Counted from the stretch's first letter, positions 27,337 to 46,086 are shown. The stretch: DNA of 64,000 bases from an uncultured Candidatus Micrarchaeota archaeon (GCA_963804385.1 CAWDQD010000036.1:13250-77249); one strand, 5' to 3'. Notes: generated from the letters alone by a model not told the origin. Numbers and translations are program-made.

Positions 27337-28581
27337 ATGCATCGTGCGGGCCAAGGATTGCTGCTTCTCTTATTGTTCACCATAGCTTCCGCAAGCCCGA
27401 CAGCCAGTGTACAGCCGATAGACCTCACGTTCGTGGTACCGATCATCGCCTTGATTGTCATAATATTCCTGGCTGCGGTCAACATGCTGGCCACGTCCAT
27501 CTCAGACCCTAAGCTCGAGGCCTGGGCGAAGACCGAGATACGGGAGTTCATAGTCGCACTCATCCTCATCGGCCTGATATTGGGCTTCTTCATAAGCTCG
27601 AACGGCATAAGCATAGCGCTGACAGGCACCACGGATTACGTGGGCCATTCCCAGACGATACTGGACAGCTGGCTCGGGAAATTCGACGACGCGTACGCCG
27701 GAGTCATACTCGCCGCGGCGAGGGTGAGGGTCGCGGCCACATTCGCGCCGTACATAAACGTCCCGCTATGGTACGTCTCGATAAGCTATTCCACGAACCC
27801 TCTCGCGGGCATCGCCATCATACTCACCACGCTGACCATGGCGACGCAGGGGCTCACGAACGCCATCTTCCTGATAGAGGCCGTGAGGATGCTCATAATA
27901 TATATGAAGGTGGTCGGACCGAAGATCCTGCTCCCGCTCGCATTCATGATCAGGTTGATACCGTTCAGCCGGAGGCTGGGCAACACCCTCATCGCCCTCG
28001 CCTTGGCAGGAATGGTATTGCTCCCGTATTCGGTGATAGTCGCGGATGCGCTGAACGGGACCATCCCACCAGCCATAATGCCAGCCCCGCATCTGAGCGC
28101 CGGCGACCTGAGGAGCATGATCCCGGAGCCGCTCTCTTTGATCACATCCACTGTGGGGCCGCTCTGCCAATCGGCGTTCATCAGGACGATGCTCGGCCTC
28201 ACGGACCCGCTGTTCGCTCTCGTCGTATGCTCCCCCCTCCTGCTCATTCCGTTCGTGGGAGAAGGCCTGTTCGCCGCATGCTTCCCTCTGGTGCAGTATG
28301 TCATCTATCCGCTCATAACCGAGATACTCCAGCTCGTGATGGCGGCGCTCCTGCTCACGTGGGAAGCGGCCATAGTGGCGAGGGATGCGGTCGCATCGAC
28401 CAACTACGGCCTGGACGTATACGGCACGCTCCAGACTTTCCTGATGGCCATCAACGACCTGGTGCTGCTCATCTATCTTGATATAATCATAATCATGACA
28501 TTCACTGTAGTGGGAGCGAGAAGCATCTCGACCGCGCTCGGCGGCGAATGGTATATGGCGGGCATACAGAGGCTGGTATGA
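27337..28581 (+). CDS. Paralogous polytopic membrane protein MP1 (unknown family)
   Basis: 414 aa with a signal-like N-terminus, a TM, motif SDPKLEAWAKTEIREF, a second TM, a loop, motif LLPLAFMIRLIPFSRRLGNTLIALALAGMVLLP, further TMs and the tail LGGEWYMAGIQRLV. Confidence 0.8.
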   Translation: MHRAGQGLLLLLLFTIASASPTASVQPIDLTFVVPIIALIVIIFLAAVNMLATSISDPKLEAWAKTEIREFIVALILIGLILGFFISSNGISIALTGTTDYVGHSQTILDSWLGKFDDAYAGVILAAARVRVAATFAPYINVPLWYVSISYSTNPLAGIAIILTTLTMATQGLTNAIFLIEAVRMLIIYMKVVGPKILLPLAFMIRLIPFSRRLGNTLIALALAGMVLLPYSVIVADALNGTIPPAIMPAPHLSAGDLRSMIPEPLSLITSTVGPLCQSAFIRTMLGLTDPLFALVVCSPLLLIPFVGEGLFAACFPLVQYVIYPLITEILQLVMAALLLTWEAAIVARDAVASTNYGLDVYGTLQTFLMAINDLVLLIYLDIIIIMTFTVVGARSISTALGGEWYMAGIQRLV

Positions 28582-29585
28582 TGAACAAACTCGCGCTCTT
28601 CATGCTCCTGCTATGCTCGGCCGCGTTCGCCAACATGGCGTGCATGGCAAACGCCACGGATGTCATACTGGGCCAGGCGAACGGCGTGCAGGGCCTCATA
28701 ATCGTGGTCATCATCTTCACGATAGTCATAATAGCGCTTGCGTACACGATCGGGACCGCAGCCAACAACCCGTCGCTCACCATATTCGCAAAGGACGAGA
28801 TATACCACCTGGGTTTCTCGATACTCATCCTCCTCGCCATGAGCGGCATCGTGCTCACATCCTGCTCGGTGATAGATTTCTTCAGCGCATCCGTCTTCGC
28901 GAACGCCGGGATCACCACGACGACGTGCTACAACAGCGGCAGCTCGATGACGAGCGTGGCCACGTGCTATGCCAAGTCCGCGCTGGATGACGCGCAGCAG
29001 ATGTCTACGGTCTACATCCAGAAATATCTCGACAACATAATGGATTCCACGATGTCGTGGAGTCTGCAGTTCCCGCTCTTGAATTCCTACACGTCCACCG
29101 CGGCATCGTACAAGAGGATCGTCTCGAACCAGTATGATATGATACTGAACTCGTTCCTGATCCCGGCCATGATGAGCATCAGCATGCAGAAGCTCGCGCT
29201 GCAGTTCATCGACGGCAACGTGGTCACATGGCTGCTGCCGATCGCGTTCCTGCTCCGCATCTTCATCCCGACGAGGCAGATGGGGAACATGCTCATAGCG
29301 CTCTCGCTCGCGCTCTATGTCATCGTCCCTTTCCTCTACGTGTTCAATTTCGCCATGTACGATTCCCTGCTTAGCAAGAGCGACTGCTCGGAGTTCTCGG
29401 GAGCGGTATGCGACTATGTGGCGGACGGAGGCAACTGCACCCCGGATTCGGTCTGCACCAACACGGAAGGGTTCTGGATGGTGGCCAGATTGATACCCCA
29501 GGCGTTCTTCCTTCCGAACCTGACGATAGTAATAGTCATAACGTTCCTTACCGCGATGAATAAGGCACTGAAGGTGATGGGATGA
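28578..29585 (+). CDS. Paralogous polytopic membrane protein MP2
   Basis: 335 aa, joined to MP1 by an ATGATGA overlap. Motifs NNPSLTIFAKDEIYHL and LLPIAFLLRIFIPTRQMGNMLIALSLALYVIVP are present, with a shorter C-terminal tail. Confidence 0.8.
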   Translation: MMNKLALFMLLLCSAAFANMACMANATDVILGQANGVQGLIIVVIIFTIVIIALAYTIGTAANNPSLTIFAKDEIYHLGFSILILLAMSGIVLTSCSVIDFFSASVFANAGITTTTCYNSGSSMTSVATCYAKSALDDAQQMSTVYIQKYLDNIMDSTMSWSLQFPLLNSYTSTAASYKRIVSNQYDMILNSFLIPAMMSISMQKLALQFIDGNVVTWLLPIAFLLRIFIPTRQMGNMLIALSLALYVIVPFLYVFNFAMYDSLLSKSDCSEFSGAVCDYVADGGNCTPDSVCTNTEGFWMVARLIPQAFFLPNLTIVIVITFLTAMNKALKVMG

Positions 29586-31774
29586 AGAAACTGCTCGCGC
29601 TCCTGGCCCTGTTCCTGCTAGTCGGGATGGCTTCTGCAGACAGCAATGTCACGCAGATATTCCAGCAGAAGACGACGAATTCGGCCCTGGAAGTAGCGAA
29701 CAACTGGATGGTGCTCTCCATCATCGCCATCATGATATCGATCATACTCGTCGCGATGGCTTACGCGGTGGGCATCGGCTTCGAGATGCCCGAGCTCCAG
29801 GCATGGGCCGGAAACGAGCTCGTCCAGGTCTTCACCAACGCGATCATGATCGCGGCGCTGATCGGTGCCATAGCTTTCATCGAGATAGTCGTCATCGGGA
29901 TAGCCGCATCGAGCGGCATAAACGTCCCCGAATGCATGCCCACGGGCTCGGGCGTCGCGCCGAGCGGAGCCACATGCCTCCAGGCGGTCACGCAACGATA
30001 CCTCGACAATTACATCAACACCGCGATAGACAAGTCCAAAGGCGTGCTGAAGAACAACGTGGATGCTGGCGGCTGGATGAACCGGAGGCTCGGCCTCACG
30101 TGCATATCCATATACTGCCTCCAGGTCAGCGTATCCGGAACGTTCGCGGCGCAGAATGTCCTGAACATGGACAAATACGGCATCGTGTTCGAATACTATT
30201 CCAACCTCCTGTCCTTCATGGAGTCCCAGCGGTTCTTCGTGATGGCGATATCGTTCAATATGGCCCCGGTGGTGCTCGCGATAGGGATTGTGCTGCGCAG
30301 TTTCTTCTTCTCGAGGAAACTCGGCGGGCTGCTGATGGCGATAGCGATAGGCGTGATGTTCTTCTTCCCGGGGATGTATATCTTCGACTGGCTGACGCTC
30401 AACACGGTCACAAATGGGGATCAGGCGTATGGGCAGGAGACGCAGAACTGCCCTTCGGAATGCCTGATAGAGACCCCGCTCGCGTACCTGAAGGAAGGGA
30501 CGAGCACGATGGCGTTCAACGACACCGAAAGCATCTACCTGGCCTTCAGCGACGAGAATACCGCCGAAGGGATCATAAACGGGAGCCTGGATTCCGCACA
30601 GGCGACTACGACCAATAGCACATATTTCGCGTATAACCAGAATGTCCAGTCCTGCTTCCCATACAACAACGGCACCAAGCTGGGGCCGAACATAAACGGG
30701 AATTACGCGAGCCAGTGCCCCACGGTCTGCAGGGAGCTGCCATACCCCACCGCGCCGGATTGCGTGAACCTCACATCGGGCGTCGCCTACGCGTGCGCAG
30801 CGGTTCCTGCCGAATGCAAGGTGACGAGGCTCGTGCCCAGCGACGAGATAAACCAGACGGAATACGATAGCTGCCCCCTGGCCTGCAAATCCATCCCGCC
30901 GCTGCGGAGCAACTGCGATCTCGATGCCACGAACAAGAACCAGACCGGAGGCACCTGCCTCAATTCGTCTTTCGAGTGCCGGATGGCATACATAAACGAG
31001 TCGCCGACCTTCAAGTCGAGGGCGACCAAGCCGTCGCAGGCCAGCTCTTCCGTGGTGCAAGCATGCAACTACGCCAAGGACTGCGTCGTCAGCCTGAATG
31101 CGAGCCAATCCTGCACATTCGTCGTCCCGCCCACAGGGACATGCGATGACATCTGCGCGGGCTGCCCCTCGGTGTGCCGGGTAGCTGATTTCTGGAACGG
31201 GAGCGTCCCGTCCAGCCAGCTCCCATCCGTTTGCACGGGAAAAGACCCCGTAACCGGCACGGACGTCTCCGCGCAGTGCCGAAAATGCCATGCGGGCTGC
31301 GAGGTCACCGAATCGGATCTGCAGGCGGACAAGGAAGCCGCGACCGCCACCGGGAACTGCACGTCCTGCAACTGGGACCATCTGCTGACCGGAGGCACGA
31401 ACATGCCTTACGAGTACACGAACGGCAATTGCGGGGACGACAGCTGCCCGGTGCAATACCGCACGGACATACCGTTCAACGTCTGCGAATCATGCCTCTT
31501 CGATGAGTCAGAGTACATGTACAACCCTCCGATAAACACCGAATGCTCGGACATCTGCAAACCGCCGGACAACGCTCCGGTGAACCAGCCGGGCACCAAT
31601 ATAGGAGGGGACGGGCTGGCCGGAGACGCGGACATACAGGACCTGTCCAGGCTCATGGTGCCGGTCTACGTGCTGCCGCTGTTCAACATCGTCGCGACAT
31701 TGGTGTTCATCAAGGGTCTATCAACATTCCTAGGAGGGGACGTCGAGATCCCGGGCATATCGAAGGTGTTCTGA
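29582..31774 (+). CDS. Paralogous polytopic membrane protein MP3 with a roughly 370-aa Cys-rich extracytoplasmic insertion
   Basis: 730 aa, joined to MP2 by an ATGA overlap. Motifs EMPELQAWAGNELVQV and VLAIGIVLRSFFFSRKLGGLLMAIAIGVMFFFP and the tail LGGDVEIPGISKVF are present. An insertion with about 35 Cys and many NxS/T sequons lies between the core and the last TM. Confidence 0.8.
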   Translation: MKKLLALLALFLLVGMASADSNVTQIFQQKTTNSALEVANNWMVLSIIAIMISIILVAMAYAVGIGFEMPELQAWAGNELVQVFTNAIMIAALIGAIAFIEIVVIGIAASSGINVPECMPTGSGVAPSGATCLQAVTQRYLDNYINTAIDKSKGVLKNNVDAGGWMNRRLGLTCISIYCLQVSVSGTFAAQNVLNMDKYGIVFEYYSNLLSFMESQRFFVMAISFNMAPVVLAIGIVLRSFFFSRKLGGLLMAIAIGVMFFFPGMYIFDWLTLNTVTNGDQAYGQETQNCPSECLIETPLAYLKEGTSTMAFNDTESIYLAFSDENTAEGIINGSLDSAQATTTNSTYFAYNQNVQSCFPYNNGTKLGPNINGNYASQCPTVCRELPYPTAPDCVNLTSGVAYACAAVPAECKVTRLVPSDEINQTEYDSCPLACKSIPPLRSNCDLDATNKNQTGGTCLNSSFECRMAYINESPTFKSRATKPSQASSSVVQACNYAKDCVVSLNASQSCTFVVPPTGTCDDICAGCPSVCRVADFWNGSVPSSQLPSVCTGKDPVTGTDVSAQCRKCHAGCEVTESDLQADKEAATATGNCTSCNWDHLLTGGTNMPYEYTNGNCGDDSCPVQYRTDIPFNVCESCLFDESEYMYNPPINTECSDICKPPDNAPVNQPGTNIGGDGLAGDADIQDLSRLMVPVYVLPLFNIVATLVFIKGLSTFLGGDVEIPGISKVF

Positions 31775-32841
31775 TGAAGAAACTGGCATTGCTGCTGTTG
31801 CTCATCCCGCTCGCGTTCGCGGCATGGCAGGCCACGGCAGCGCTCGCCATAGTGACTTCGGTCAGCCTGCTCGCCCTATTGTATATGATAGGCATGGGGT
31901 TCGGGATCAACGAGCTGCAGCTGACGGCCAAGGAGGAGTTCTTCCAGGTCATCGCCGTCGCGATCATGATGGTCCTGCTCGTGGGCTCGGACGGCGTGCT
32001 CAACACGATATCGAACAATGTGGCTTTCAGCGGCTCCGGCACCAACATGCAGGACGGGGCCATGATGATCATAAACGACACCACCACGAACGTCACGAAC
32101 CTGTTCAACACGATAACCAGCATCGATCACACCATAGCCAATGAAGCGTCCAAAGGCGGCTCGTGCAATATCATACAGGTAGGGTATTCGGTCAGCGCAT
32201 GCGGCGGCTACAGCATGCTGCCCACGCCCATGTCCATGGCCGGCAGCATAGCCGGCTTCGCGCTCGGGGAGCTGGCCGCCATGTACAAGCTGCTGGAGAT
32301 AGCCACGCAGTTCGGCCTCTCGTTCCTGCTTCCGCTGGGCATAATACTGCGCACATTCAAGCTCACGCGCGGGGCCGGCGGATTCCTGATCGCCCTTGGC
32401 ATATCGATGTACATACTCCTGCCTATGGGGATCATATTCAACGAGATGATGGCTGTCACGTTCATAAGCACGGCAGGGACCAGCAGCCCGGATGCGGCCA
32501 ATGTCGCGCAGTACGCCCCGGTGAGCGGCACGCCGAGCATACCCTCATGCAATCCGCTGGACACCGGATCCTTCATGTCCGGGCTGGGCACCCCGGTCAG
32601 TTGCGGCTCCGGAGGGGGCAATGCCCTTAGCAACACGTTCCTCGGGGGGAGCAACGATGCGAACGCGGTCGGCACATACTGCATGTTGAGGGGAGACATC
32701 AAGGGCTACCTATACGTCATGCTCATCCAAGCCACGCTCGGCCCGGTGATAGCCCTCCTGATGATGATAGCGGGCATAAGGACGCTGAGTTCGATAGCGG
32801 GCGCTGAAGTCGACGTCACAGCGATCTCGAGGTTTGTCTGA
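31774..32841 (+). CDS. Paralogous polytopic membrane protein MP4
   Basis: 355 aa, joined by a TGATG 1-nt overlap. Motifs GINELQLTAKEEFFQV and LLPLGIILRTFKLTRGAGGFLIALGISMYILLP and the tail AGAEVDVTAISRFV are present. The track ORF start at 31543 is an out-of-context extension inside MP3. Confidence 0.8.
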   Translation: MKKLALLLLLIPLAFAAWQATAALAIVTSVSLLALLYMIGMGFGINELQLTAKEEFFQVIAVAIMMVLLVGSDGVLNTISNNVAFSGSGTNMQDGAMMIINDTTTNVTNLFNTITSIDHTIANEASKGGSCNIIQVGYSVSACGGYSMLPTPMSMAGSIAGFALGELAAMYKLLEIATQFGLSFLLPLGIILRTFKLTRGAGGFLIALGISMYILLPMGIIFNEMMAVTFISTAGTSSPDAANVAQYAPVSGTPSIPSCNPLDTGSFMSGLGTPVSCGSGGGNALSNTFLGGSNDANAVGTYCMLRGDIKGYLYVMLIQATLGPVIALLMMIAGIRTLSSIAGAEVDVTAISRFV

Positions 32842-33944
32842 TGTCTCTCACGAAGTTCGCTCTGCTCGCGCTCCTGGTATCATCGATGGCATGGGCAGAC
32901 ACCGTGATGTGCGGCAGCGGCACCGTGTTCGACAACGCGGTGCTCCCCCTCCTCGCATACGCTTCCGTGGGCACGATGATACTCATCGCATTGAGCTATA
33001 TGGCAGGGACCGCATTCTCGAACCCCAAGCTCACGCTGTGGTCCAAGACAGAGATCGTCCAGCTGGTCATATCGATCGCTTCGGTCGCGCTGATCATGCT
33101 CGCGGTCACGACGTTCTGCTCGATAGACATGCATGAGATCGCGGGCATATTCAGCCTCCCCGGCACCCACCCCAGCATCAACGTCTACGACGCCGCGAAG
33201 GATTACCTCGAAGGCTCCGTGAACTATTCGCACAACGCCATGATAATGGTGAGATACCACCTGGAGGCGTACACGGTGCTCTCGTATTTCAACGCGTTCA
33301 TCTGCGACTACAACATCGGCCGTATCGGCCTGGGATGCTTCTTCGGCTATTCGGGAGACACCGAGCAGCCCTTCGGAGGGTACGGAGCGGTAATCGCCGC
33401 GTTGAACGTGTTCTTCAACTCCACGATCATCGCGTACTTCACCGCGCTCAATTTCCTGTTCATACTCCTGTTCATCTACCACGGTTTCGTCTTCCTGTTC
33501 CTGCCGCTGGGGGTTTTCCTCCGCGCCCTCCCGTACATGCGTCCGGTGGGCTCGCTGCTGATAGCGCTCGCGCTGTCGTTCCTGACGATCTACCCGCTCA
33601 TGCTGGGGATATACTACCTGATGAGCCCGGTGCTTCTGGACACCCCGGCGTATGCGCCCGCGGGGATCAATATGGGCAACTACGGGGAGAGCATATTCCC
33701 GGATTCCACGAACCCGGCATCGCAGCTGGCGGTCAGCACGGCAGGCGAATCGTATGTGCATGACCATTATTTCGGGGGCGGCAAGGAGAACCTGGGCGGC
33801 GCGATCGCGTTCTCGGCTGACGCGTTCATCGCGGCAGTGTTCTTCCCGACCTCCGCGCTGCTGGCCGCGATAGCGAGCGTCGCTTACATGGCCAGGATGA
33901 TGGGCGAGGAGATAGATTTAAGCAGGCTAACGCAATTGGTGTAG
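32841..33944 (+). CDS. Paralogous polytopic membrane protein MP5
   Basis: 367 aa, joined by a TGATG 1-nt overlap. Motifs SNPKLTLWSKTEIVQL and FLPLGVFLRALPYMRPVGSLLIALALSFLTIYP and the tail MGEEIDLSRLTQLV are present. Confidence 0.8.
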   Translation: MSLTKFALLALLVSSMAWADTVMCGSGTVFDNAVLPLLAYASVGTMILIALSYMAGTAFSNPKLTLWSKTEIVQLVISIASVALIMLAVTTFCSIDMHEIAGIFSLPGTHPSINVYDAAKDYLEGSVNYSHNAMIMVRYHLEAYTVLSYFNAFICDYNIGRIGLGCFFGYSGDTEQPFGGYGAVIAALNVFFNSTIIAYFTALNFLFILLFIYHGFVFLFLPLGVFLRALPYMRPVGSLLIALALSFLTIYPLMLGIYYLMSPVLLDTPAYAPAGINMGNYGESIFPDSTNPASQLAVSTAGESYVHDHYFGGGKENLGGAIAFSADAFIAAVFFPTSALLAAIASVAYMARMMGEEIDLSRLTQLV

Positions 33945-33946
33945 GT

Positions 33947-34996
33947 ATGATGCTGCTGTCGATACAGAGTTTCATGGGCAACGCGGGCGTCTCGTGGGCA
34001 GCCACATGGCTGCCGCTCTCCATACTGGCGGTGCTTGCGACGGTCATGTTCCATTCCTTACTACTTATGCTCGGCAGGGCGTTCAACATAAAAGAGCTTG
34101 AGAGCTTCGCGATGTCCGAGATACTCCAGGCCGCCGCGACCGCGTTCATCGCGATATTCCTGGTCGTGATGGTCACGAGCGCCATGCAGCTCGCCTCGGG
34201 TTACATAGGCGGCGGCACCCTCGCTTGCAGTGGGACCGCCATGAACATAGGCACCAACACGGCCATCTCGACCTCGGGCGGCTCGGTCATGGACGACGCG
34301 TACAAAGCGATAGAATGCACGCTGCAGCAGCGGGCCATCAGCGTGTCGAGCATCCAGCAGAGCATCCTCACCAGCAGCACGGCTGCGGCGGAATTCAATT
34401 TCCTCAACACGATGGCCAGCGTATTCGGCGTGACCTTCATAAGGGGCGACTGGGTAGGCTCGGTGTACAGCGACACCGAGACCATGAGGCTGACGAACAA
34501 CCTCGCGACAGTGATGCTGATAGGGCTCAACGGCCAGTCGGCGCTGCTCGAATACATGAGGGTCAACCTGCTCAACATCTTCCTCCCGGTCGGGATACTC
34601 CTGCGATCGTTCTATTTCACCCGGGGCCCCGGAGCGCTGTTCATCGCGATAGCCATCGGGATGTACTTCCTGTTCCCGGTGTTCTATATCCTCCTGGATC
34701 CCGGATTCACCCCTGCGCCTCCCGAAGCGGCGACTCCGCCCAATATCCATCCCTACTGCTATTCCACGATGTCCACCACAGTCTCAATGGTGAACACCAT
34801 GCAGAGCGCCGGGGTAGGGACGAGCTCGTCGCTCTCGTTCTCGTCCATGAGGGAGGACCTGTCCAAATCGTATATCAGCCTCATGCTCCAGCCGCTGGTC
34901 GCGCTGTTCCTCACGCTCGTCTTCGTGAGGTACATGATGAGCGTGCTCGGAGGGGACGCGTACGAGCTAACGAAGATGGTTTCGAAAGTGATCTGA
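33947..34996 (+). CDS. Paralogous polytopic membrane protein MP6
   Basis: 349 aa, starting 2 nt after the MP5 stop. Motifs NIKELESFAMSEILQA and FLPVGILLRSFYFTRGPGALFIAIAIGMYFLFP and the tail LGGDAYELTKMVSKVI are present. Confidence 0.8.
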   Translation: MMLLSIQSFMGNAGVSWAATWLPLSILAVLATVMFHSLLLMLGRAFNIKELESFAMSEILQAAATAFIAIFLVVMVTSAMQLASGYIGGGTLACSGTAMNIGTNTAISTSGGSVMDDAYKAIECTLQQRAISVSSIQQSILTSSTAAAEFNFLNTMASVFGVTFIRGDWVGSVYSDTETMRLTNNLATVMLIGLNGQSALLEYMRVNLLNIFLPVGILLRSFYFTRGPGALFIAIAIGMYFLFPVFYILLDPGFTPAPPEAATPPNIHPYCYSTMSTTVSMVNTMQSAGVGTSSSLSFSSMREDLSKSYISLMLQPLVALFLTLVFVRYMMSVLGGDAYELTKMVSKVI

Positions 34997-37900
34997 TGAA
35001 ACACGCATACATACTGGCCGCCATGGCGATTATCATCTTCCTTTCCGGTTGCGTCAGCGACAATGTCCAGCTGGGCTGCTGCATCCAGGCCAATGCCACG
35101 GACCTTTCGAACCAAGGATGCGTGCTCTACAACACCACGAGCTTCACCAGCACCGACGATTACTTCTCGAGCACTCACGGATGCAACCTCACCACCCTGA
35201 ACTGCAATGTGACGATAGGGACCGCGGATTATATCATCCCCATCTGCAGCGGGAGCGAGCTGGTATCATGCGTCGAACCCTCGTGCACCGCGATGGTCTG
35301 CGGGGATTTCGCCTTCAAGCCGCAAGCAGCCCCGGGATACAACGATGTGAGCTCGGCGCAGGGGGACGTGCCCGTGAACGGGCAGAGCGCGACCCTCCAG
35401 TTCTACAAGGCGCAATGCAGGTTCCTGCCCATGGATGCGAACCTGAAGAACATCATGTCGAGCTCGAAATCCCAGATAAACGTTTTCAGGATGGGCGTGG
35501 GCGGCTCGTTCGACGACTTCGATCAATACAGGTATTTCTTCCCGATGTCGGATCAGTACTGCAACATCAACCCCCCGCAGAAGGCAGAAGACAAGAGGGT
35601 GGACAGATACATGAACTACCTCTCCGCGGCCAACGGCGGGACCGCGTATGACGGCAACATAACGACAGATTGCCTCAACGACACGACCGCCCCGCCGCCG
35701 TTCCAGTTCAGCGAGGCGCAGGTGCAGAAGACATCCACGCTGCCGAGCGGAGGCACGGTGACGTACGACACGAAAGCGCCGGACAAATCCGAATACGCGA
35801 GCACCTACGAATACCGTCTCGATTATTCAGCCGTATGGAAATCAGGATATTATTCCTATAGCGGCACGAACCCGCTCCCGACCGACGACCAGGTCATGAA
35901 GCAGATAGACGACAATTTCTACAGGAGGGCGCTCACCATAGCGCATGCGAACGATATATACGCCACTGACAACAACGGAGTCTCCAGGGCGGAATTCGAA
36001 TGCGATATCTCTTCGAACGATTGCTTCTCCGGAAGCTGCGATACGAGCGTCTACAACCGGGGCGTGCTCCAGAGCACCGATGCCGCCACTGGAGTGACGA
36101 CGGACGTGGTCGGTGACTGCAACAAGGTTCAGGACGATGTCGGCCTCACGAGGGTCGTTTGCGGAGCCACCAAGAGCGTCACGATCAACAGCGGCAATAC
36201 CGAACCGACCATCGCTCCGGTGGACGTGAACATGCAGACCGCCCTGCTCGTGGACCAGAGGGGGCTGAACGAAGGCAATTCGGGCAGCGGGGCTGGCGAG
36301 AATGGGAACCCGGGCTTCAACGACTACCAATCGCAGAACAATAACCTCTATCAGAGCTACTGGGGCAATTTCTCTTCGTCTGAGATAGTGGACAAAAGCT
36401 TCATGGGGGTAGGATTGTCATACCCGTACGCCCCATGGGCGATCGATTTCTATCTGGCGAAGAAGAAGGACTGCCCGGCCCTTTATGGCTATATCGCCCC
36501 GGGAAGCGCGGATGAGAATGTCACCGTGAACTGCTCCATGGCATTCCCATCAGATTCCCAGCCGCCGGTAATTTTCGGCGTCACGCTGCCTTCGCTGCCC
36601 CCGGACCTCGGAGGCGCGGTGTTCTTCGGCAAGACAGGCGACACGCAGGTGAACTATGCCGGCAGCGACATACTCGGATACGCGATAGCGTCCCCGGATG
36701 ATATCGCGAACATGTACGTCGTGAAGAACTGCGGCATAGACCTCACTCCGATCCAGACGACATTCCCGATCGCGGTGGATAACACCCCGGCATCCTTGTC
36801 TGATTGCCTGAGCCAATGCACGAACATATGCGCCCCTGCGCCCCAAGGCAGCAATATATACAAGAGCTGCAGCACATGGTGCAGCAACGACACTCCGGAC
36901 CCCTCGACACAGCCATGCGAGATGCCCCCCGAGAGCAAAGACGCCATAATGCTGGATGTCCCTGCCCCGACCCAATGGGGAAGGCTGCTCAACGCATTCG
37001 AACCGTATTACGAGCAGAGGATGAAGGCGCTCATCGGCACGGGTTTCAGCGACGGGTGCGGCGGCAGCCTCAATGTGCTGGACGGTGCGATCTCATCAAT
37101 GCCGTGGGTGATGGAGTACAAGAAAGGGGTGAGGACTCCGGATTTCGTACTGGGTGGCGACAGCGATCCGGTGGGATCCGGCCCGCCGGATACGGCGTTT
37201 CCTGAGCAGAACCAATACGACACCGAGGGCGGCCACCTGTTCCTAACATCCCTGCCGGCGCAGATACAGCGGGATAGGAACGTGTTCGATGACCGTATGC
37301 TCAACTTCTCCGGGACGAGCAGCTGCGAGCTGCGCCGGGACACCTACGGCTACTGGGATACCGACGGCCTCAACTATGTCGATACCAACGACGGCTTCGT
37401 TGCACAATATACATACAACCCGTATTACAGCATCGCGTATTCCACGAACATATACCTGTTCAAGTACAACGCCACGACCAACAAGCTCGGCAAATGCGAC
37501 ATAGATTCCGACACGCTGCTGCCGGTCATCAAGACGCTGGGGTGGTGCAAGCCATGCACGACGTCCACGCTCGCGTACCAGAACATAAGCACCACGTCGC
37601 GCGTGTATATCTCCAATTACACGGTGGATGTCGGAGGTCCGACCGCCAAGGACGAGGAAGGGATATGCTCGGTGCAATACGACCACTCGCAGGTGGGTTG
37701 GTTCACCACGACCGCAGACAACGTCTCGTGCTTCAATCCGCATATAAGCGATCTCCAGGACTACCAAGGGGAACTAGGCATCCAGGGTTCGCCCAGGACA
37801 ATCCCTGATGCCACGATAATAAAACAGAAGATCGGGAATTACATGAAATCAGGCGTGCTGCCGGTGCTCGATTTGTCAGATATCAGCAACTGGATCAAGA

Positions 37901-39297
37901 GCAACCCGGATTGCGACTGGGACGCCGCGCACAACAGATGCCGCAACAACGCATTCAATTTCAATTGGTGGAGCACCGCCACATACGGCCCCAAAGGCAA
38001 TTACCTGGACTATGATTTCCAGAACCTGTTCGGCAATATGGGAGCTGCGGTCGTCATAGTCGAGCATGTGAGCAACCTGACGGACCTTAACACAGGGGTA
38101 TCGTACCAATTCCCGTTCTTGGGGGACATAATGGTGGAACCGCCGAAGATACAGACGATCAAGGACCGCGCCCAGATAGTCAGGGATTACTGCCACGACT
38201 GCCTCATCGCTTTCCAGGTGGATTCCCCGGACAATAGCACGGTTTTCGGGGATGTGGTCAGATCGGCCATGGCAGACCCCACCGCGAGAGCGGACGTGGA
38301 CATGATAACATTCGATTATTCCGTGACTTCGCACGATGCCCGCACGCTTGGAAATGCCACCGCGGTGGCCGATGACATAGCGTCCTACGGCCTCGCATCG
38401 TTGCAGAACACCGGAAAACCGACCATGGTGGTCGGACTGAGCGTGAGCGACATCGACATCTATTGGAACAGCAACAATTACAAGACGCTTTTCGACACCA
38501 TAGTGGATGGGCAGGACACGCTCCTCAAGGCGGGCATCATGGGGATAATCTACAGCCCCGCCAGGGACCAGCAGATCGTGGATTCGGGCGGACGGGCGAG
38601 GCCGATACTGCCCGGCTCGCTGAACGGGATAGTCAGCGTGGATCCGACAGGCGCAGGAGTCAAAGACGCGAAATTCTGCGCCCTACAGGACGCGATGCAC
38701 AGGATGTCCACCATACCTCCGAACGCGCTGATCACCAAGACTGAATCTCTGGACAGCGTGAACTGCACCGCATGCACGAGCCTCGATATCAGCCAGGGGA
38801 CGTGCGGGCCTCCGGCAGGCCATTCCGCTCCGGTCTGCGACGACGGGGTGGAATGCACCCTCCCGCCAGGCCTGAGCGCGGGACTCGCGAAATGCCCGGA
38901 AGGTACGGTCATAGCGCAGTGCCCGCTCTGCAGCGACATGACAGGCACCTTCAACTGCACCAAGACGTACGCCAACGGCACGGAAGAGAACATCGCCGGC
39001 GACATGTCGGAGCTTACAGGAGACACGTGGATGGACGTCCTCGCAGGGCTGCCCAAACCGGACAAATGCTGCATACAGGACAGCGCAGGCAACAACTACA
39101 CATACACGAAGCAGACGTATGAGAGCCCGCAGGACAAGCCGGTCGTCTTCTCTAAAACAGGCGACCAGAACCTGGATTGCGGGTTCGGGACTTCGACCAG
39201 CCAGGTCGACACGGTGACATCGTTCTGCAACATCCCGGCCCCGCCGATGAAGGATTACGACATAAACTGCTGCATAGACTGCTCGAAGGCGCCGTGA
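34996..39297 (+). CDS. Giant (1433 aa) Cys-rich secreted lipoprotein-like protein of unknown function
   Basis: TGATG overlap with MP6. The N-terminus MKHAYILAAMAIIIFLSGC carries a lipobox-like LSGC. I count about 55 Cys, dozens of NxS/T sequons, and no further TM. The track ORF start at 34225 is a spurious extension inside MP6. Confidence 0.8.
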   Translation: MKHAYILAAMAIIIFLSGCVSDNVQLGCCIQANATDLSNQGCVLYNTTSFTSTDDYFSSTHGCNLTTLNCNVTIGTADYIIPICSGSELVSCVEPSCTAMVCGDFAFKPQAAPGYNDVSSAQGDVPVNGQSATLQFYKAQCRFLPMDANLKNIMSSSKSQINVFRMGVGGSFDDFDQYRYFFPMSDQYCNINPPQKAEDKRVDRYMNYLSAANGGTAYDGNITTDCLNDTTAPPPFQFSEAQVQKTSTLPSGGTVTYDTKAPDKSEYASTYEYRLDYSAVWKSGYYSYSGTNPLPTDDQVMKQIDDNFYRRALTIAHANDIYATDNNGVSRAEFECDISSNDCFSGSCDTSVYNRGVLQSTDAATGVTTDVVGDCNKVQDDVGLTRVVCGATKSVTINSGNTEPTIAPVDVNMQTALLVDQRGLNEGNSGSGAGENGNPGFNDYQSQNNNLYQSYWGNFSSSEIVDKSFMGVGLSYPYAPWAIDFYLAKKKDCPALYGYIAPGSADENVTVNCSMAFPSDSQPPVIFGVTLPSLPPDLGGAVFFGKTGDTQVNYAGSDILGYAIASPDDIANMYVVKNCGIDLTPIQTTFPIAVDNTPASLSDCLSQCTNICAPAPQGSNIYKSCSTWCSNDTPDPSTQPCEMPPESKDAIMLDVPAPTQWGRLLNAFEPYYEQRMKALIGTGFSDGCGGSLNVLDGAISSMPWVMEYKKGVRTPDFVLGGDSDPVGSGPPDTAFPEQNQYDTEGGHLFLTSLPAQIQRDRNVFDDRMLNFSGTSSCELRRDTYGYWDTDGLNYVDTNDGFVAQYTYNPYYSIAYSTNIYLFKYNATTNKLGKCDIDSDTLLPVIKTLGWCKPCTTSTLAYQNISTTSRVYISNYTVDVGGPTAKDEEGICSVQYDHSQVGWFTTTADNVSCFNPHISDLQDYQGELGIQGSPRTIPDATIIKQKIGNYMKSGVLPVLDLSDISNWIKSNPDCDWDAAHNRCRNNAFNFNWWSTATYGPKGNYLDYDFQNLFGNMGAAVVIVEHVSNLTDLNTGVSYQFPFLGDIMVEPPKIQTIKDRAQIVRDYCHDCLIAFQVDSPDNSTVFGDVVRSAMADPTARADVDMITFDYSVTSHDARTLGNATAVADDIASYGLASLQNTGKPTMVVGLSVSDIDIYWNSNNYKTLFDTIVDGQDTLLKAGIMGIIYSPARDQQIVDSGGRARPILPGSLNGIVSVDPTGAGVKDAKFCALQDAMHRMSTIPPNALITKTESLDSVNCTACTSLDISQGTCGPPAGHSAPVCDDGVECTLPPGLSAGLAKCPEGTVIAQCPLCSDMTGTFNCTKTYANGTEENIAGDMSELTGDTWMDVLAGLPKPDKCCIQDSAGNNYTYTKQTYESPQDKPVVFSKTGDQNLDCGFGTSTSQVDTVTSFCNIPAPPMKDYDINCCIDCSKAP

Positions 39298-39299
39298 CT

Positions 39300-39635
39300 A
39301 TGGGGATAAGAGAAATATTGAAAGGCATGCTCAATCCGCCCAAAAGCGGCGGCAAAGGCCAGCGTCAGTCATGCCCCAACTGCGGGGAGTCGATCAACCT
39401 GAGCATGGAGCGCTGCCCCAAATGCGGGGTCCGGATAAAGAGCATGTTCCGGAGGAAGTGCCCCAGATGCGGCACCCTGAACGAGCTGGACATAAAATCA
39501 TGCGCGAACTGCCATTACGATTTCGAAGCAGAATTGGAAAGGGCTAAAAAAACGTTTTACGTATGCCCTATCTGCGGATATAAGATGGAGGCGCTGCTCA
39601 CGCAGTGCCCTTCCTGCAACACCCGTTTCATGTGA
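39300..39635 (+). CDS. Triple zinc-ribbon protein
   Basis: 111 aa with three CxxC-N11-16-CxxC/H units: CPNCG...CPKCG, CPRCG...CANCH and CPICG...CPSCN. It starts 2 nt after the giant gene's stop. Confidence 0.7.
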   Translation: MGIREILKGMLNPPKSGGKGQRQSCPNCGESINLSMERCPKCGVRIKSMFRRKCPRCGTLNELDIKSCANCHYDFEAELERAKKTFYVCPICGYKMEALLTQCPSCNTRFM

Positions 39636-39639
39636 GTTT

Positions 39640-40206
39640 ATGGTCGAATCATTCAAGCAAGCTGAGAAGAAAATCGAGGCCGAGGCCGCACCCAAGAAGA
39701 AGTTCGTCCACCTACTGGACGAAGAGAACGTGGAGGTCAAGAAGCTCACGGAAGAGGACATCGAGGACTGTGTCAAGGTCATGAGGAGATGCGCCTTCGA
39801 TGTCACCGAAGCCGAGGTCGGGAACATAATATCCTACGGCAAGAGCTTCGGCGCCACGGTCAACCGCATGATAGTTGGCGTCGGCCTCGCGTGGCCCGCG
39901 CACATAGACATGGAAGGGAAGCGCATAACGAGCGGGGAACCGAACGCGCTCTACCTGGAGGATCCGGCCATCCTGCTCTCCTACGAAGGCAGGGGGGTCA
40001 GGAGGATACTGCTCTCGGAAAGGGAGAAGGAGGCGGCATCGTCCAACCTGAAATACGTGATCGGATACCTCTACGAGGACATCCCGAAAGACGAGATCGC
40101 GCATTACATAACCGAGGCAGGCAGCGCCCTGGAGAGGCTCTACCTCTCGGAAGGGTACGAATTCTACAGGACCGACAAGGGCATACTGGCGTTCAAGAAG
40201 GTCTAG
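39640..40206 (+). CDS. Hypothetical protein, weak GNAT-acetyltransferase-like features
   Basis: 188 aa, starting 4 nt after the zinc-ribbon gene. YEGRGVRRILLSEREKEAAS loosely resembles GNAT motif A, and the C-terminal YLSEGYEF..D.G...FKK resembles the GNAT beta-bulge end. This is a weak by-eye call. Confidence 0.3.
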   Translation: MVESFKQAEKKIEAEAAPKKKFVHLLDEENVEVKKLTEEDIEDCVKVMRRCAFDVTEAEVGNIISYGKSFGATVNRMIVGVGLAWPAHIDMEGKRITSGEPNALYLEDPAILLSYEGRGVRRILLSEREKEAASSNLKYVIGYLYEDIPKDEIAHYITEAGSALERLYLSEGYEFYRTDKGILAFKKV

Positions 40207-40898
40207 CACAGCTTCAGCAGCACTTCCGAGAAGCCGAGCGAGCGCATCTTGCCTATTATCGCTTGTGATTTCCTGGTCAGGTGGACCAGATCTGCGTTGC
40301 AGACGCTTATGCTTATCTTCTTGCCGCTCACCTTGAGGGTCGCATCCTTGAATCCGAGCGAAACCACGTATTTCCTCGCGATCTCGGTTTTCCTGGAGAG
40401 GGTCCGTTCATCGTTCGCAGGACGCTCCCAGTTCGGCAGCCCCAGCTCCTTGGCCAGGAGGCGCACCTCCCCCTTGGATGTGTTGCTCTCGAGTATCGGG
40501 CTCTGCAACCCGGCGCTCCTGAAGATGACCATGTTCTTGGCCTTCTGCTTATTGACCGCCGATTTCTCGAAGGCATGCTCCAGCTTGGTTCGCATGGCAA
40601 GGCTTTTCAATGAAGAGTAGGTGTGCATGCTCCTGGGCATCGGCGTACGCTTGCCGGAATCTGATGGGGCCTCCCTAGTATCCATGATCTTGGCCACCCT
40701 TCTGGCCATGGAAAGCTCGTCGCTCGGGTAGGACGATGAGAGCGCCTTGAGCGCCACGGCCTTGTCACCGAGCTCTTGGTGGAGTATCCGTACGAGGAAG
40801 GAATTGTCGACCTCCCCGGATACCGCGGCCAGCGCGCTGTCCAGCTTCCTGATGCTGCTGCGCAGGTCCTTGAGTTTGCTCTCCAAGCTTTTGGCCAT
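40203..40898 (-). CDS. LarE/TIGR00268-like PP-loop family protein with degenerate active-site motifs
   Basis: ALAAVSGEVDNSFLVRILHQELGDKAVALKALSSSYPSDELSMARRVAKIM parallels the family N-terminus (VAFSGGVDSS...), but SGGxDS is replaced by SGEVDN. SPILESNTSKGEVRLLAKELGLPNWERPAN and SLGFKDATLKVSGKKISISV parallel the conserved C-terminal half. The central Cys-containing segment and the CLASR Cys are absent. Confidence 0.55.
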   Translation of the reverse strand: MAKSLESKLKDLRSSIRKLDSALAAVSGEVDNSFLVRILHQELGDKAVALKALSSSYPSDELSMARRVAKIMDTREAPSDSGKRTPMPRSMHTYSSLKSLAMRTKLEHAFEKSAVNKQKAKNMVIFRSAGLQSPILESNTSKGEVRLLAKELGLPNWERPANDERTLSRKTEIARKYVVSLGFKDATLKVSGKKISISVCNADLVHLTRKSQAIIGKMRSLGFSEVLLKLC

Positions 40899-40951
40899 GA
40901 CAAGGCTTATCGATGAATAAGATTAATAAGGTGCTAAGCTGAGTTCTGGTG

Positions 40952-42712
40952 ATGCGCTTACTACATGTGCTCTGTCTCCTGCTGATATCATCGATAGCGT
41001 TCGCTTCTTCGATAGCGCCCGGATCATCCGCGCCATATTGCAACGGAAGCATCACGCAGTACGTGCCTGCGGTCGTAGGGACCGGAGGCGGTCTGGTAGG
41101 GGTGACATTGCAGCTCGTCCCATCGACGGAAGGGAACGGTACCATCTATGCCGGGGTCTATCCGACGCTCGGGACCGACACCCAGGACTCCATCGACCAG
41201 GCGGTCACATACGCATTCGCCGCGTCTAGCAAGGAGCTCTCATGCAACGCGCTCGTCTCCTTCAGTTCTGGGTATGGCACGGGCTACATAGACGGCCCGA
41301 GCGCCGGAGCCGCGTTCACGGTCATGACATACGCCCTGGTGAACAACCGGACGATGCGGAACGACACTATCATGACCGGGACTATAGAGGATGGGGGAGA
41401 TATCGGCGCGGTCGGGGGCCTCTACGAGAAAGCCGATAGCGCCGCCAAGGGCGGTGCGAAGTATTTCATCGCTCCGGTGGAAGGGATATACGAGATGCTG
41501 ATATTGCGGAACGTGGAGAAGATGGATGGCATAACGATCCTCCAGGCGCGCAATGTGAAAGATGCCATAGGTTTCATGCTGGACAACATATCGATAGACC
41601 AGGAGGGCATGCTACCCCAGAACCGGACCGCCCCGGATATACCGTCCTATGATTCCGGCGGGATCTCGTCGTTCATCCCGGTCGCCTCTGGCATGGTATC
41701 GCTCGAGAACGAGACCCTCGCCACCATAAGCGGCACCGACAACGATTCGAACGCGGTGCGCGATTTCTACTCCAGCGAGACGGAAAGGCAATCGAAGATC
41801 CTCAGGATGGGGTACCTCTTCACTGCGGCCAACGAGGCGTTCCTGAATTACATCGACCTCTCCACCATAAAGTCCATACTGGCCAATGACACGGACGTAT
41901 CGGCCAAGAGGGGCGATCTCGGCGTATGCCTCGGCTCCATAACCAGGCCTGCCTTGACCGACAATAATTTCCAGTGGGTGATCGGCGCGGACCTGCGCCA
42001 GGCATGGGCTTATGACAAGATGGCGGGGGACCAGAACGTGAGCGGCATGCTCGAAGACGAGCGGTACCTCGCGATAAACGACATGTCATACGGGATCGCG
42101 TGGTGCGATGTCGCGAAATCCATCCTGGCGGCTGCGCCCCAGGGCGGCACTCCGATAGATGAGAACGCGTGGAAGGCTCTCGCGACGCAGGAGATAGATG
42201 ACGCCAAGAACCTCCCGCTGCAGAAGCCCGACAGCATAGCGAGGCTGGGGATAGCCCAGAACTCGTACAACAACGGCAAATACGGGGCCGCGATATACGA
42301 CGCGGTGTACGCGATGAACAACGAGGAGACCCCGCCCACGGATCCGGAGACCGAGAAGGCCCAGGTCAGCGCGCTCCTCGGGGAGAACATCACTTCGCTC
42401 TGGGGGCAGATATACATGTCCCATGCCGCGTTCCTCTATCAGGACAACGACAGCGCATCGGCCTGGACCGTGGCGAGATTCGCCAAGGAGCTCGATGACG
42501 TGACGAAGCAGATGGAAAACAGCACGGCCACGCAGACTCCCGCGGCTGCGGTCCCGATCAGCCCCCCGGCGCAGGACTATCTCCTCCTGGCAGAGGGATT
42601 CGCGGCATTATCAATCTTTTTATTGGTTGTCGCTGTAATACTACTGATAAGGCGAGCGGATGGAAACGAACGAACTGGTAGGGATTATAGAGCTAAACAA
42701 AAAAAGGGCTGA
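40952..42712 (+). CDS. Secreted, C-terminally membrane-anchored Lon-like (S16) serine peptidase domain protein
   Basis: Signal peptide MRLLHVLCLLLISSIAFASS, followed by the Lon proteolytic core YIDGPSAGAAFTVMTYAL...MTGTIEDGGDIGAVGGLYEKADSAAKGGAKYFIAP (Ser-Lys dyad context). This is followed by a roughly 350-aa unknown domain and the C-terminal TM LLLAEGFAALSIFLLVVAVILLI. No AAA+ module is present. A TATA-like ATTAATAA lies 23 nt upstream. Confidence 0.7.
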   Translation: MRLLHVLCLLLISSIAFASSIAPGSSAPYCNGSITQYVPAVVGTGGGLVGVTLQLVPSTEGNGTIYAGVYPTLGTDTQDSIDQAVTYAFAASSKELSCNALVSFSSGYGTGYIDGPSAGAAFTVMTYALVNNRTMRNDTIMTGTIEDGGDIGAVGGLYEKADSAAKGGAKYFIAPVEGIYEMLILRNVEKMDGITILQARNVKDAIGFMLDNISIDQEGMLPQNRTAPDIPSYDSGGISSFIPVASGMVSLENETLATISGTDNDSNAVRDFYSSETERQSKILRMGYLFTAANEAFLNYIDLSTIKSILANDTDVSAKRGDLGVCLGSITRPALTDNNFQWVIGADLRQAWAYDKMAGDQNVSGMLEDERYLAINDMSYGIAWCDVAKSILAAAPQGGTPIDENAWKALATQEIDDAKNLPLQKPDSIARLGIAQNSYNNGKYGAAIYDAVYAMNNEETPPTDPETEKAQVSALLGENITSLWGQIYMSHAAFLYQDNDSASAWTVARFAKELDDVTKQMENSTATQTPAAAVPISPPAQDYLLLAEGFAALSIFLLVVAVILLIRRADGNERTGRDYRAKQKKG

Positions 42713-45120: not shown

Positions 45121-46086
45121 ATGCCGATAAAGAAACGCAACGTCAGGGGAAAAACATATTACTACTTGGAGAAGAACATCCGTATAGGGGAAAATGCGTG
45201 GAAGACGTTCTCTATCTACATTGGTTCCAAAAAACCCGCAACGCCCGGAGTAGCGAAGCTGGAAAGGAGATTGGGACGGGATATTGCCGCGTTCATAAGA
45301 AATCAGATTTTGAAGCCTAAAACGCGGTTTATAGACGCGAAAACAGCCCTGAAACTGGAAAGAATCAGGACGTCCCACCGGAGAGCACTTGCTGCCTTGG
45401 ATAAGGCTAGCAGGGAAAACTACCTCCAAAGGCAACGGGAGATTTTCATCACCAATACAAATGCCATCGAAGGAAGCCGATTGACATTCGAGCAGACAAA
45501 AAAGATACTTGGGCTAAAAAAGGGTTACGAAACGCAGAACAGAGAAGAACTCGAAGTCACCAACATGGAGCGGTGCCTTGAACTGTATGATAGACTATTG
45601 GGGCAAAAGGCAGGACTTAATGAAAAAATCGTACTCAGACTGCATTTGATGCTACTGAAAGCGATACCGGATTATGAAGGATATGCAGGCGTCTGGCGGC
45701 CCGTCGATGTTTATATCAGGGACTCGGAATATGAATTTCCTGCATGGAAAGATGTTCCCAAGCTCATGGCGGATCTTTTGGAATGGTATGACGAAAACAA
45801 GGATAGTGTGCATCCGGTGGAATTGGCAGCCATATTCCATGCCAAGTTTGTCACAATACATCCTTTTGCGGACGGCAACGGGAGGATGGCCCGCCTTCTC
45901 ATGAATTACATACTGCAGATGAACGGTTTCTCATTCACGGACATTCCTTTTTCGAAGAGAGACGAATATTTTGAAACGCAGGAAGAAGGCCACTTCGGAA
46001 AGCACGGGCCGTTCGTCCGGTTTTTAGTGAACCAGATAAAAGCCCAGTTCGCAGAACTAAGGAAAAGAACTATGAAGCGGAGATGA
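45121..46086 (+). CDS. fic: Fic-family protein (AMPylase/Fido domain)
   Basis: The canonical Fic motif HPFADGNGRMARLL is present. The gene has lower GC than its surroundings. Confidence 0.9.
   Translation: MPIKKRNVRGKTYYYLEKNIRIGENAWKTFSIYIGSKKPATPGVAKLERRLGRDIAAFIRNQILKPKTRFIDAKTALKLERIRTSHRRALAALDKASRENYLQRQREIFITNTNAIEGSRLTFEQTKKILGLKKGYETQNREELEVTNMERCLELYDRLLGQKAGLNEKIVLRLHLMLLKAIPDYEGYAGVWRPVDVYIRDSEYEFPAWKDVPKLMADLLEWYDENKDSVHPVELAAIFHAKFVTIHPFADGNGRMARLLMNYILQMNGFSFTDIPFSKRDEYFETQEEGHFGKHGPFVRFLVNQIKAQFAELRKRTMKRR

Follow-up and report, generated by a model that had tools for sequence, protein, structure and literature searches.

Six anciently diverged membrane-protein paralogs in a conserved chromosomal module of Micrarchaeota, probably one multi-subunit machine of the cell envelope

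Cryo-electron microscopy of the eukaryotic Tweety (TTYH) proteins has revealed five transmembrane (TM) helices, an N-terminus outside the cell, a C-terminus inside it, and an outer helical bundle. Archaea of the DPANN group have very small genomes and presumably depend on partner cells; beyond pili and some giant adhesins, the molecules through which they contact such cells or exchange material with them are, to our knowledge, largely undescribed. The subject here is a stretch of 64,000 nucleotides from an uncultured Candidatus Micrarchaeota archaeon (GCA_963804385.1 CAWDQD010000036.1:13250-77249), the whole of which is called the window, and in it six tandem genes, MP1 to MP6, at positions 27337-34996. 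Their products are anciently diverged paralogs of an undescribed all-alpha polytopic membrane family, whose named homologues come nearly all from Micrarchaeota (DPANN). With two large flanking genes, BIGup and BIGdn, the six make up a conserved chromosomal module, to which a zinc-ribbon gene and a gene for a 188-residue protein are often adjacent. The module probably encodes one multi-subunit machine of the cell envelope.

A reading of the window made from the DNA alone (the sequence-only reading) had taken the six genes for tandem paralogs, and this is borne out by pairwise BLASTP, by an in-register alignment and by cross-orthogroup hidden Markov models (HMMs) compared with shuffles. MAFFT aligns all six proteins in register over the motifs quoted in that reading, with about 20-24% identity between paralogs and with L60, E67, G97, L199, R206, R212, G215, A220, P230 and P265 (MP1 numbering) invariant in all of them. 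In a six-sequence database, BLASTP with composition-based statistics matches 15 of 15 pairs (E 2.6e-4 to 1.7e-14). Per-position HMMs, built from 21 other genomes with the window sequences excluded, give the other five paralogs of the window scores of 20-99 bits, whereas 1,200 composition-preserving shuffles reach at most 9.8 bits. Because the real scores far exceed the shuffle maximum, the similarity of the motifs is a matter of homology, and a compositional artefact of hydrophobic bias is ruled out.

The layout that had been ascribed to all six proteins stands as far as the motifs are concerned and needs correcting at the N-terminal end. Only four of the six have the Y-x-x-G that was said to end TM1, the Tyr being absent from MP1 and MP6, and MP6 has no separate signal-like segment before TM1. 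The tail was described correctly: MP2 is the sole paralog without the LGGE-type C-terminus, which is also missing from the MP2-like member of a distant lineage. An internal duplication, in which the TM1-TM2 hairpin would correspond to the TM3-TM4 hairpin, was not detected by hhalign (probability 0.1%).

All six genes are stop/start-coupled open reading frames (ORFs) on the plus strand, with boundaries upheld by ORF listing and start-codon inspection: MP1 (27337-28581, 414 residues), MP2 (28578-29585, 335 residues), MP3 (29582-31774, 730 residues), MP4 (31774-32841, 355 residues), MP5 (32841-33944, 367 residues) and MP6 (33947-34996, 349 residues). From MP1 to MP6 the junctions are overlaps of 4, 4, 1 and 1 nucleotides followed by a gap of 2 nucleotides, and the stop of MP6 in turn overlaps the start of BIGdn by 1 nucleotide. 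MP4 truly begins at the ATG at 31774 (MKKLALLL), the ORF from 31543 being a same-frame upstream extension that overlaps MP3. The gene boundaries recur in an independent gene call made on a second assembly of this sequence (locus L064), and the database protein P0001 is 100% identical to MP5.

Homologues were sought among 5.8 billion proteins with profiles and with single sequences. All those returned are nameless or "hypothetical" and without a Pfam domain; the named ones belong to Candidatus Micrarchaeota, Micrarchaeia, Bilamarchaeum or "ainarchaeum", with the one exception of a protein on a 1.7-kb contig that bears the label Nitrososphaera. When 1.84 billion representatives (50% identity) were searched exhaustively by HMMER with the profile of the six paralogs, 2,851 proteins were found at E<=1e-3, 1,963 at E<=1e-10 and 248 at E<=1e-30; the taxa of the low-scoring tail of this search are not among the matches listed, and relatives outside Micrarchaeota may be present there. 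A peripheral-profile search beyond Micrarchaeota returned 12 matches and no new taxon names. Members of 1,100-1,680 residues were considered as fusions or as proteins from outside Micrarchaeota and rejected as such, the three named ones being from Micrarchaeia or Anstonellaceae; they probably have enlarged outer loops of the MP3 type, as in the 1,346-residue MP3 of locus L056. In the word-indexed search MP1 found by far the most orthologs, at 41-87% identity in the main clade and 25-35% in deep branches.

How constant is the array? One genome per GTDB species was scanned with a profile of MP1 orthologs, yielding 60 loci, all in Micrarchaeota or in unclassified "archaeon" metagenome-assembled genomes (MAGs). 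The loci were classed by comparing their ORFs with the window proteins and with the family HMM, and 48 of them are uncut by a contig end within the array. Every one of these 48 has exactly six members, in the order MP1-MP2-MP3-MP4-MP5-MP6, so that the copy-number survey proposed in the sequence-only reading gives six per cluster; the window, too, has exactly six by the family HMM. Each position keeps its characteristic size, MP3 always being the long one (604-1,346 residues). When 130 sequences from 22 clusters were all compared with one another, 127 of them had at least 20 orthologs of their own position ranked above any paralog. These positional orthogroups, with six members in fixed order at every uncut locus, agree with the earlier view that the duplication is old and the copies non-redundant. 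Given the fixed number, order and orthology, the six-fold duplication predates the radiation of the phylum as far as it is sampled, and no copy has been lost or replaced since.

Three MAGs carry two complete clusters (L006/L034, L025/L044, L015/L051), of which only one in each pair lies at the usual AAA18/PurA position; such pairs could be whole-module duplications or mixed bins. No extra or missing single paralog was seen at any locus uncut by a contig end. In the rearranged lineage L061/L063 the gene order differs and the inventory is the same: L063 has, on one strand, a 661-residue bitopic protein with the architecture of BIGup, a 570-residue Cys-rich protein with a lipobox, and then six family members. 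The module is a conserved chromosomal unit of about 16 kb and at least eight genes, found in all sampled Micrarchaeota loci. In L001 the MPs are 46-56% identical to those of the window, compared with 58-66% for AAA18 and DHH, and the MPs thus diverge about as slowly as the neighbouring housekeeping genes.

The MPs are predicted to have a cleaved signal peptide, an N-terminus outside, five TM helices and a C-terminus inside. Hydropathy brings out the TM segments, Sec-type signal peptides are present, Cys and N-x-S/T sequons occur only in the two long loops, and Arg and Lys cluster in the short loop between TM3 and TM4. With this topology three elements would face the cytoplasm. Motif 1 (P-x-L-x-x-W-A-K-x-E) would lie where TM1 turns into TM2, and motif 2 (L-R-x-F-x-x-T-R-x-x-G) where TM3 turns into TM4; the third element is the C-terminal LGGE...I..L helix. 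The outer face would consist of two variable loops rich in Cys and sequons. AlphaFold2 (AF2) models from deep ortholog alignments are confident for MP1 (predicted local distance difference test, pLDDT, 86.8; predicted template modelling score, pTM, 0.74) and for MP6 (pLDDT 83.4, pTM 0.77). The two agree in an all-alpha structure with long helices that run from the membrane into an outer bundle, and both include one or two small beta-hairpins and a short terminal helix.

Conservation, measured as mean pairwise column identity within each of the six orthogroups, is highest in the motif 2 loop (0.59-0.78 across the orthogroups), followed by the C-tail (0.46-0.65), motif 1 (0.45-0.62), the TM helices (0.29-0.62) and the outer loops (0.14-0.35). 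The predicted cytoplasmic elements are therefore the most conserved parts of each orthogroup, while the ectodomains vary. Among the 130 sequences, E58, R220, R226, G229 and P244 (MP6 numbering) are the only invariant or near-invariant positions, and they are also invariant or present in >=90% of 95 further members from 15 clusters (14 Micrarchaeota genome loci and one metagenome contig), the rearranged lineage included. The family signature is present: the motif 1 Glu, L-P-x-G-x-x-L-R-x5-R-x2-G-x14-P across TM3, loop and TM4, a terminal TM helix and usually an LGGE-type tail.

The outer loops set the paralogs apart, measuring for example about 40 residues in MP2 and 420 in MP3. MP1 has an extra hydrophobic insert in its second outer loop (residues ~286-348), with three invariant Cys. 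MP3 consists of the family core and, in the same loop, an ectodomain of about 420 residues that carries 12 N-x-S/T sequons and 32 Cys. Of these Cys, most recur in 15-21 of 21 orthologs, and the ectodomain is for this reason taken as a folded, conserved unit. No Cys column is common to all six paralogs, the outer-loop Cys being kept within orthogroups. As a further observation, the Cys of MP3 residues 290-659 fall mostly into CxxC/CxxxC pairs (CPSEC, CPTVC, CPLAC, CDDICAGCPSVC, CRKCHAGC, CTSC, CESC, CSDIC), a pattern suggestive of a surface-exposed stack of knuckles, either disulfide-bonded or metal-binding.

The family had been put forward as unrecognised, and the empty Pfam, NCBIfam and PDB profile searches, with no convincing relative from Foldseek, support this. 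Pfam and NCBIfam return nothing for MP1-MP6, BIGup or BIGdn, nor for the orthologs of the latter two, and among the 95 further members no Pfam family is matched by more than two at E<=0.1. A match of MP2 to WCOR413 (22.8 bits against a cutoff of 25, seen in 2 of the 95 members) was treated as hydrophobic noise. PHROGs and PADLOC have nothing for the MPs, BIGup or BIGdn, bar one weak, sub-threshold PHROGs match of BIGdn to a family of unknown function (E 0.0064). Searches of the PDB by sequence were empty for MP profiles of 6 or 130 sequences, for a BIGdn profile and for BIGup and BIGdn as single sequences; the sole entries, at E >1, were 49-residue AcrZ TM helices. Foldseek with the MP1 and MP6 models found no convincing relative in the PDB, and the viral BFVD also gave nothing. 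The MPs are a new protein family and fold with no described relative, and a literature search found no prior description of the module. A mobile element, a virus or a defence island was considered and ruled out by the conserved housekeeping synteny and by the lack of PHROGs and PADLOC matches.

Two large genes accompany the array. BIGup lies upstream on the minus strand, from 23418 to 27218 (MLSDV...) or 27254 (MKIYK...), and, read divergently from MP1, encodes a bitopic protein some 1,266 residues long. It comprises a signal peptide, a Cys-rich ectodomain of about 195 residues, one TM helix, a juxtamembrane motif (TGRNPF..FN.GG.R.G.HIRYQARGRGF) and a cytoplasmic region of about 1,040 residues that is poorly conserved, Cys-free and rich in A, K, E and G. 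In the ortholog alignment, conservation is limited to the ectodomain, the TM helix and the cytoplasmic juxtamembrane motif. BIGup is divergent upstream of MP1 in 38 of the 48 uncut loci, and a few others are cut upstream of MP1. The intergenic region between BIGup and MP1 (27219-27336, 118 nucleotides) contains two TATA-like boxes, TTTATAAA at 27240-27247, about 25 nucleotides from the BIGup ATG, and TTTTAATA at 27309-27316, about 24 nucleotides from the MP1 ATG. In archaea the TATA box usually lies about 26 nucleotides upstream of the transcription start, and by this geometry the two boxes may be divergent promoters.

BIGdn (34996-39297, plus strand, 1,433 residues) has a lipobox-like signal (FLSGC), no other TM segment, 55 Cys and 22 sequons. 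It is predicted to be a giant surface protein, secreted or lipid-anchored and translationally coupled to MP6. Apart from L049, each locus that extends far enough has BIGdn after MP6, and the ortholog alignment of BIGdn has 34 invariant columns, many of them Cys. Residues 1060-1186 match the 570-residue lipobox protein of L063 (hhalign probability 90%, E 1.6e-6). Separately, residues ~950-1190 alternate between strand and helix in a TIM-barrel-like manner (VLPVLDL, AAVVIVEH, CLIAFQVD, VDMITFDY, KPTMVVGLSV, GIMGIIYSP); this stretch overlaps the sole part that matches the L063 lipoprotein, and no Pfam or PDB match confirms the fold. By hhalign, the MP3 ectodomain, BIGdn and the BIGup ectodomain have no detectable domain in common (probability <1%). 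The Micrarchaeota surface-layer (S-layer) protein is of PF05123 type and Cys-poor (bioRxiv 10.1101/2021.04.28.441871). BIGdn was considered for this role and rejected, being Cys-rich (55 Cys) and having, like its 16 orthologs, no PF05123 domain.

Why should six paralogs be kept together so strictly? We infer a hetero-oligomer, the reading best supported by the fixed number, the fixed order and the translational coupling of the genes. The parts list survives rearrangement in L063, and duplications take in whole clusters, both in support of one complex. On balance we lean towards an explanation in which MP1-6 form a one-of-each complex with BIGup and BIGdn as partners, serving contact or exchange at the level of the envelope. 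A single operon with coupled translation would yield the six products in equal amounts, and one copy of each would assemble into a single membrane complex, most simply a pseudo-sixfold ring or a bundle of 30 TM helices. The conserved cytoplasmic face would join the subunits, the motif 1 Glu of one packing against the motif 2 Arg of its neighbour. Alternatively, or in addition, this face (the motif 1 Glu, the motif 2 Arg pair and the terminal helix) may dock the juxtamembrane motif of BIGup. On the outside, the paralog-specific ectodomains, above all the 420-residue disulfide-rich domain of MP3, would build with BIGdn a fixed asymmetric structure between the membrane and the S-layer. That this structure serves contact or the exchange of material with a partner cell is the least certain step and a speculative one.

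Several points weigh against this explanation. No enzymatic, ATPase or transport signature was found in any of the eight proteins, and for that reason neither an energy source nor a substrate is pointed to. BIGup is absent or unrecognisable in the deep-branching loci L047-L059, where the upstream position is taken by unrelated genes or by small ORFs for Cys-rich secreted proteins. The topology is a prediction from hydropathy, the positive-inside rule and the distribution of Cys and sequons. There is no direct link to host contact, and in a DPANN co-culture studied by cryo-tomography, intercellular nanotubes are reportedly assigned to the host, not to the symbiont (PMC11329633). A more specific version of the favoured complex seems quite improbable to us: a pseudo-sixfold ring of the six paralogs around a central conduit, forming together with BIGup on the inner side, and with BIGdn and the ectodomain of MP3 on the outer, a machine peculiar to Micrarchaeota that spans the envelope and serves for docking to a partner cell and for the uptake of lipids or metabolites. 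If true, cells would here exchange material by an apparatus of a new class, without relation to gap junctions, pili or secretion systems.

The main alternative to a function in contact or exchange is anchoring or scaffolding of the S-layer, which we regard as unlikely, although it fares best among the rivals. The same complex would then have a structural job, tethering the S-layer or setting its distance from the membrane, with the outer helical stalks and BIGdn holding the S-layer and BIGup providing the link to the cytoplasm. S-layer lattices are built on p2, p3 or p6 symmetry, to which an assembly of six different subunits, being asymmetric, is ill suited, and six conserved paralogs with a cytoplasmic tail of 1,000 residues are a great deal of machinery for an anchor. 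In its favour, both the module and the S-layer gene are widespread in the phylum, the TM helices of the AF2 models continue as long outer helices, and no catalytic or transport motif was found. Moreover, the describers of the S-layer protein, which lacks a clear membrane anchor, suggested by analogy with Sulfolobales a second, stalk-like membrane protein as its partner (bioRxiv 10.1101/2021.04.28.441871). The S-layer gene was, however, not seen beside the module in the window, where none of the proteins scanned matches PF05123.

Alternatively, the six may be independent proteins, each acting alone or as a homo-oligomer (for example as channels, receptors or anchors of adhesins that differ in specificity) and clustered only through tandem duplication. 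The great differences between their outer loops and an inter-paralog identity of merely 20-24% or so would fit. Independent paralogs normally show lineage-specific gain and loss, though, which is at odds with exactly six members in fixed order and one-to-one orthology at 48 of 48 uncut loci. The stop-to-start overlap of the genes, the duplication of whole clusters and the retention of six in the rearranged lineage speak in the same direction, and we hold this alternative to be decidedly unlikely.

A distant structural relationship to TTYH, with a possible role in lipid handling or transfer that would suit lipid-auxotrophic DPANN cells, is very unlikely. It was raised by Foldseek with the MP1 model, for which chains of TTYH1, 2 and 3 make up 9 of the top 12 matches, with end-to-end alignments of about 400 columns (best E 2.1e-3, probability 0.94), and by the resemblance in predicted TM number, orientation and loop placement. 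Yet the template modelling scores (TM-scores) are 0.15-0.19, where a shared fold would call for about 0.5 or more, with a root-mean-square deviation of 20-25 A and an identity of 13-14%; MP6, whose model is just as confident, has no TTYH match (best E 0.5); no Tweety Pfam match appears among the 95 members at E<=0.1, and the PDB profile searches are empty. With such low TM-scores, and a match not reproduced with MP6, TTYH is treated as a topological look-alike and not a relative.

A VirB6-, Ced- or Ted-like channel, belonging to a type IV secretion-like apparatus for conjugation or DNA uptake, is barely credible: the tandem polytopic paralogs recall the VirB6 arrays of Rickettsiales, a likeness that the sequence-only reading itself offered only as an analogy, and a HerA-type DUF87 ATPase (46945-48447, minus strand) lies about 8 kb downstream of the module, but several unrelated genes intervene, the ATPase scores best as DNA-repair HerA (with sub-threshold NCBIfam similarity to this, to anti-phage HerA, to CedD and to TraC), PF04610 (TrbL/VirB6) is matched neither by the six window proteins (E<=1) nor by the 95 members (E<=0.1), no Ced or type IV secretion NCBIfam model matches the MPs, BIGup or BIGdn at E<=0.1, no ATPase, pilin or coupling protein occurs inside the cluster, be it that of the window or those of related loci, and the locus is chromosomal and syntenic with exosome, PurA, DHH and ELP3 genes, so that the analogy finds no support.

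Beyond the eight genes of the favoured complex, library scans of the window proteins find an exosome operon and PurA, DHH and ELP3 genes in the surroundings. The zinc-ribbon protein (39300-39635, plus strand, 111 residues; Pfam DZR, Zn_ribbon) starts 2 nucleotides past the BIGdn stop and is followed by the soluble protein of 188 residues (39640-40206, plus strand), which belongs to no known family and travels with the zinc-ribbon gene. According to lineage, the two adjoin the MP cluster after BIGdn or before MP1 (L047, L055, L059, L018, L066, L067), which hints at a possible accessory role with a functional link to the module.

Further downstream, a 587-residue protein (40949-42712, plus strand) starts with a signal peptide and ends in a C-terminal TM anchor; between them it carries many sequons and, at residues ~61-207, a Lon_C/S16 protease-like domain. 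Its gene is syntenic downstream of the module in L066 (16626-18374) and L067 (16441-18201). An ATPase-less and apparently extracellular peptidase by its sequence features, it might process surface proteins of the module. The conserved run from the 188-residue ORF to this Lon-like gene is interrupted on the opposite strand by a 231-residue ORF (40203-40898, minus strand) with a partial, LarE-like match of 71 bits, below the cutoff. Elsewhere in the window there are a Fic/DOC-domain protein (45121-46086, plus strand) and a 363-residue GGDEF protein of the diguanylate-cyclase type (12291-13382, minus strand; Pfam E 1e-13; TIGR00254 at 53 bits, cutoff 37.4); GGDEF domains are rare in archaea. Rfam detects a tRNA at 58801-58924 (plus strand) that ARAGORN missed, and its span of 124 nucleotides implies an intron. 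Like the Micrarchaeota homologues and the exosome, PurA, DHH and ELP3 genes, this tRNA marks the window as archaeal. The sole other tRNA of the window is tRNA-Ser(TGA) at 21924-22007.

Genomes of Micrarchaeota measure about 1-1.6 Mb, of which the module takes up some 16 kb, and its genes keep one-to-one orthology across Micrarchaeota from many environments. This share of the genome, the orthology, the slow divergence and the lack of any described relative, taken together, point to core, lineage-defining biology of the envelope. The module is a concrete, if speculative, candidate for a machinery of contact or exchange in Micrarchaeota, and it contributes at least one new protein family, with about 2,850 clusters at 50% identity, that could join Pfam.

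How does this module compare with known systems? Connexin and innexin hemichannels offer the precedent of a six-subunit membrane ring, which the MPs may also form, with Cys-containing outer loops and a conceivable exchange from cell to cell. Connexins, however, have four TM helices and both termini inside, in contrast to the five helices and outer N-terminus predicted for the MPs; there is no match in sequence or fold, and the outer-loop Cys of the MPs are kept within orthogroups and not across paralogs. VirB6/TrbL proteins (PF04610) likewise occur as several diverged polytopic tandem paralogs, some copies of which have large extracytoplasmic loops or extensions. The MP cluster differs in lacking VirB4, VirB11 and VirD4 ATPases and pilins, in showing no Pfam or NCBIfam homology to these proteins, and in its copy number fixed at six, its one-to-one orthology and its housekeeping chromosomal context; besides the MPs, nothing but BIGup, BIGdn, the zinc-ribbon gene, the 188-residue ORF, the Lon_C-like peptidase and housekeeping genes is present in the cluster and its conserved flanks.

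The likeness to TTYH (PF04906; PDB 7P5J, 7RTT, 9G71) lies in the topology, the MPs being also predicted to have five TM helices with the N-terminus out and the C-terminus in, and in a pair of long loops, following TM2 and TM4, that are likewise predicted to lie outside and to prolong the TM helices as a disulfide-containing bundle. It ends with a TM-score of at most 0.19 for MP1 and with the lack of any sequence or Pfam signal. TTYH proteins are, moreover, homo-dimers or homo-tetramers of one gene product, whereas the MPs are six fixed paralogs, and they have no partners like BIGup and BIGdn. A likeness of another kind connects the MPs to Mcm2-7, CCT/TRiC, the rings of the eukaryotic proteasome and the FliP/FliQ/FliR export gate. 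Folds and functions are unrelated there, and the assembly of the MPs is itself only proposed, but these systems too have a fixed number of one-to-one orthogroups, each indispensable, with conserved elements between subunits and diverged peripheral parts. Among prokaryotic membrane proteins, the six MPs are a rare example of ancient paralogs kept as a fixed set of six, for which Mcm2-7 or CCT are the more familiar cases.

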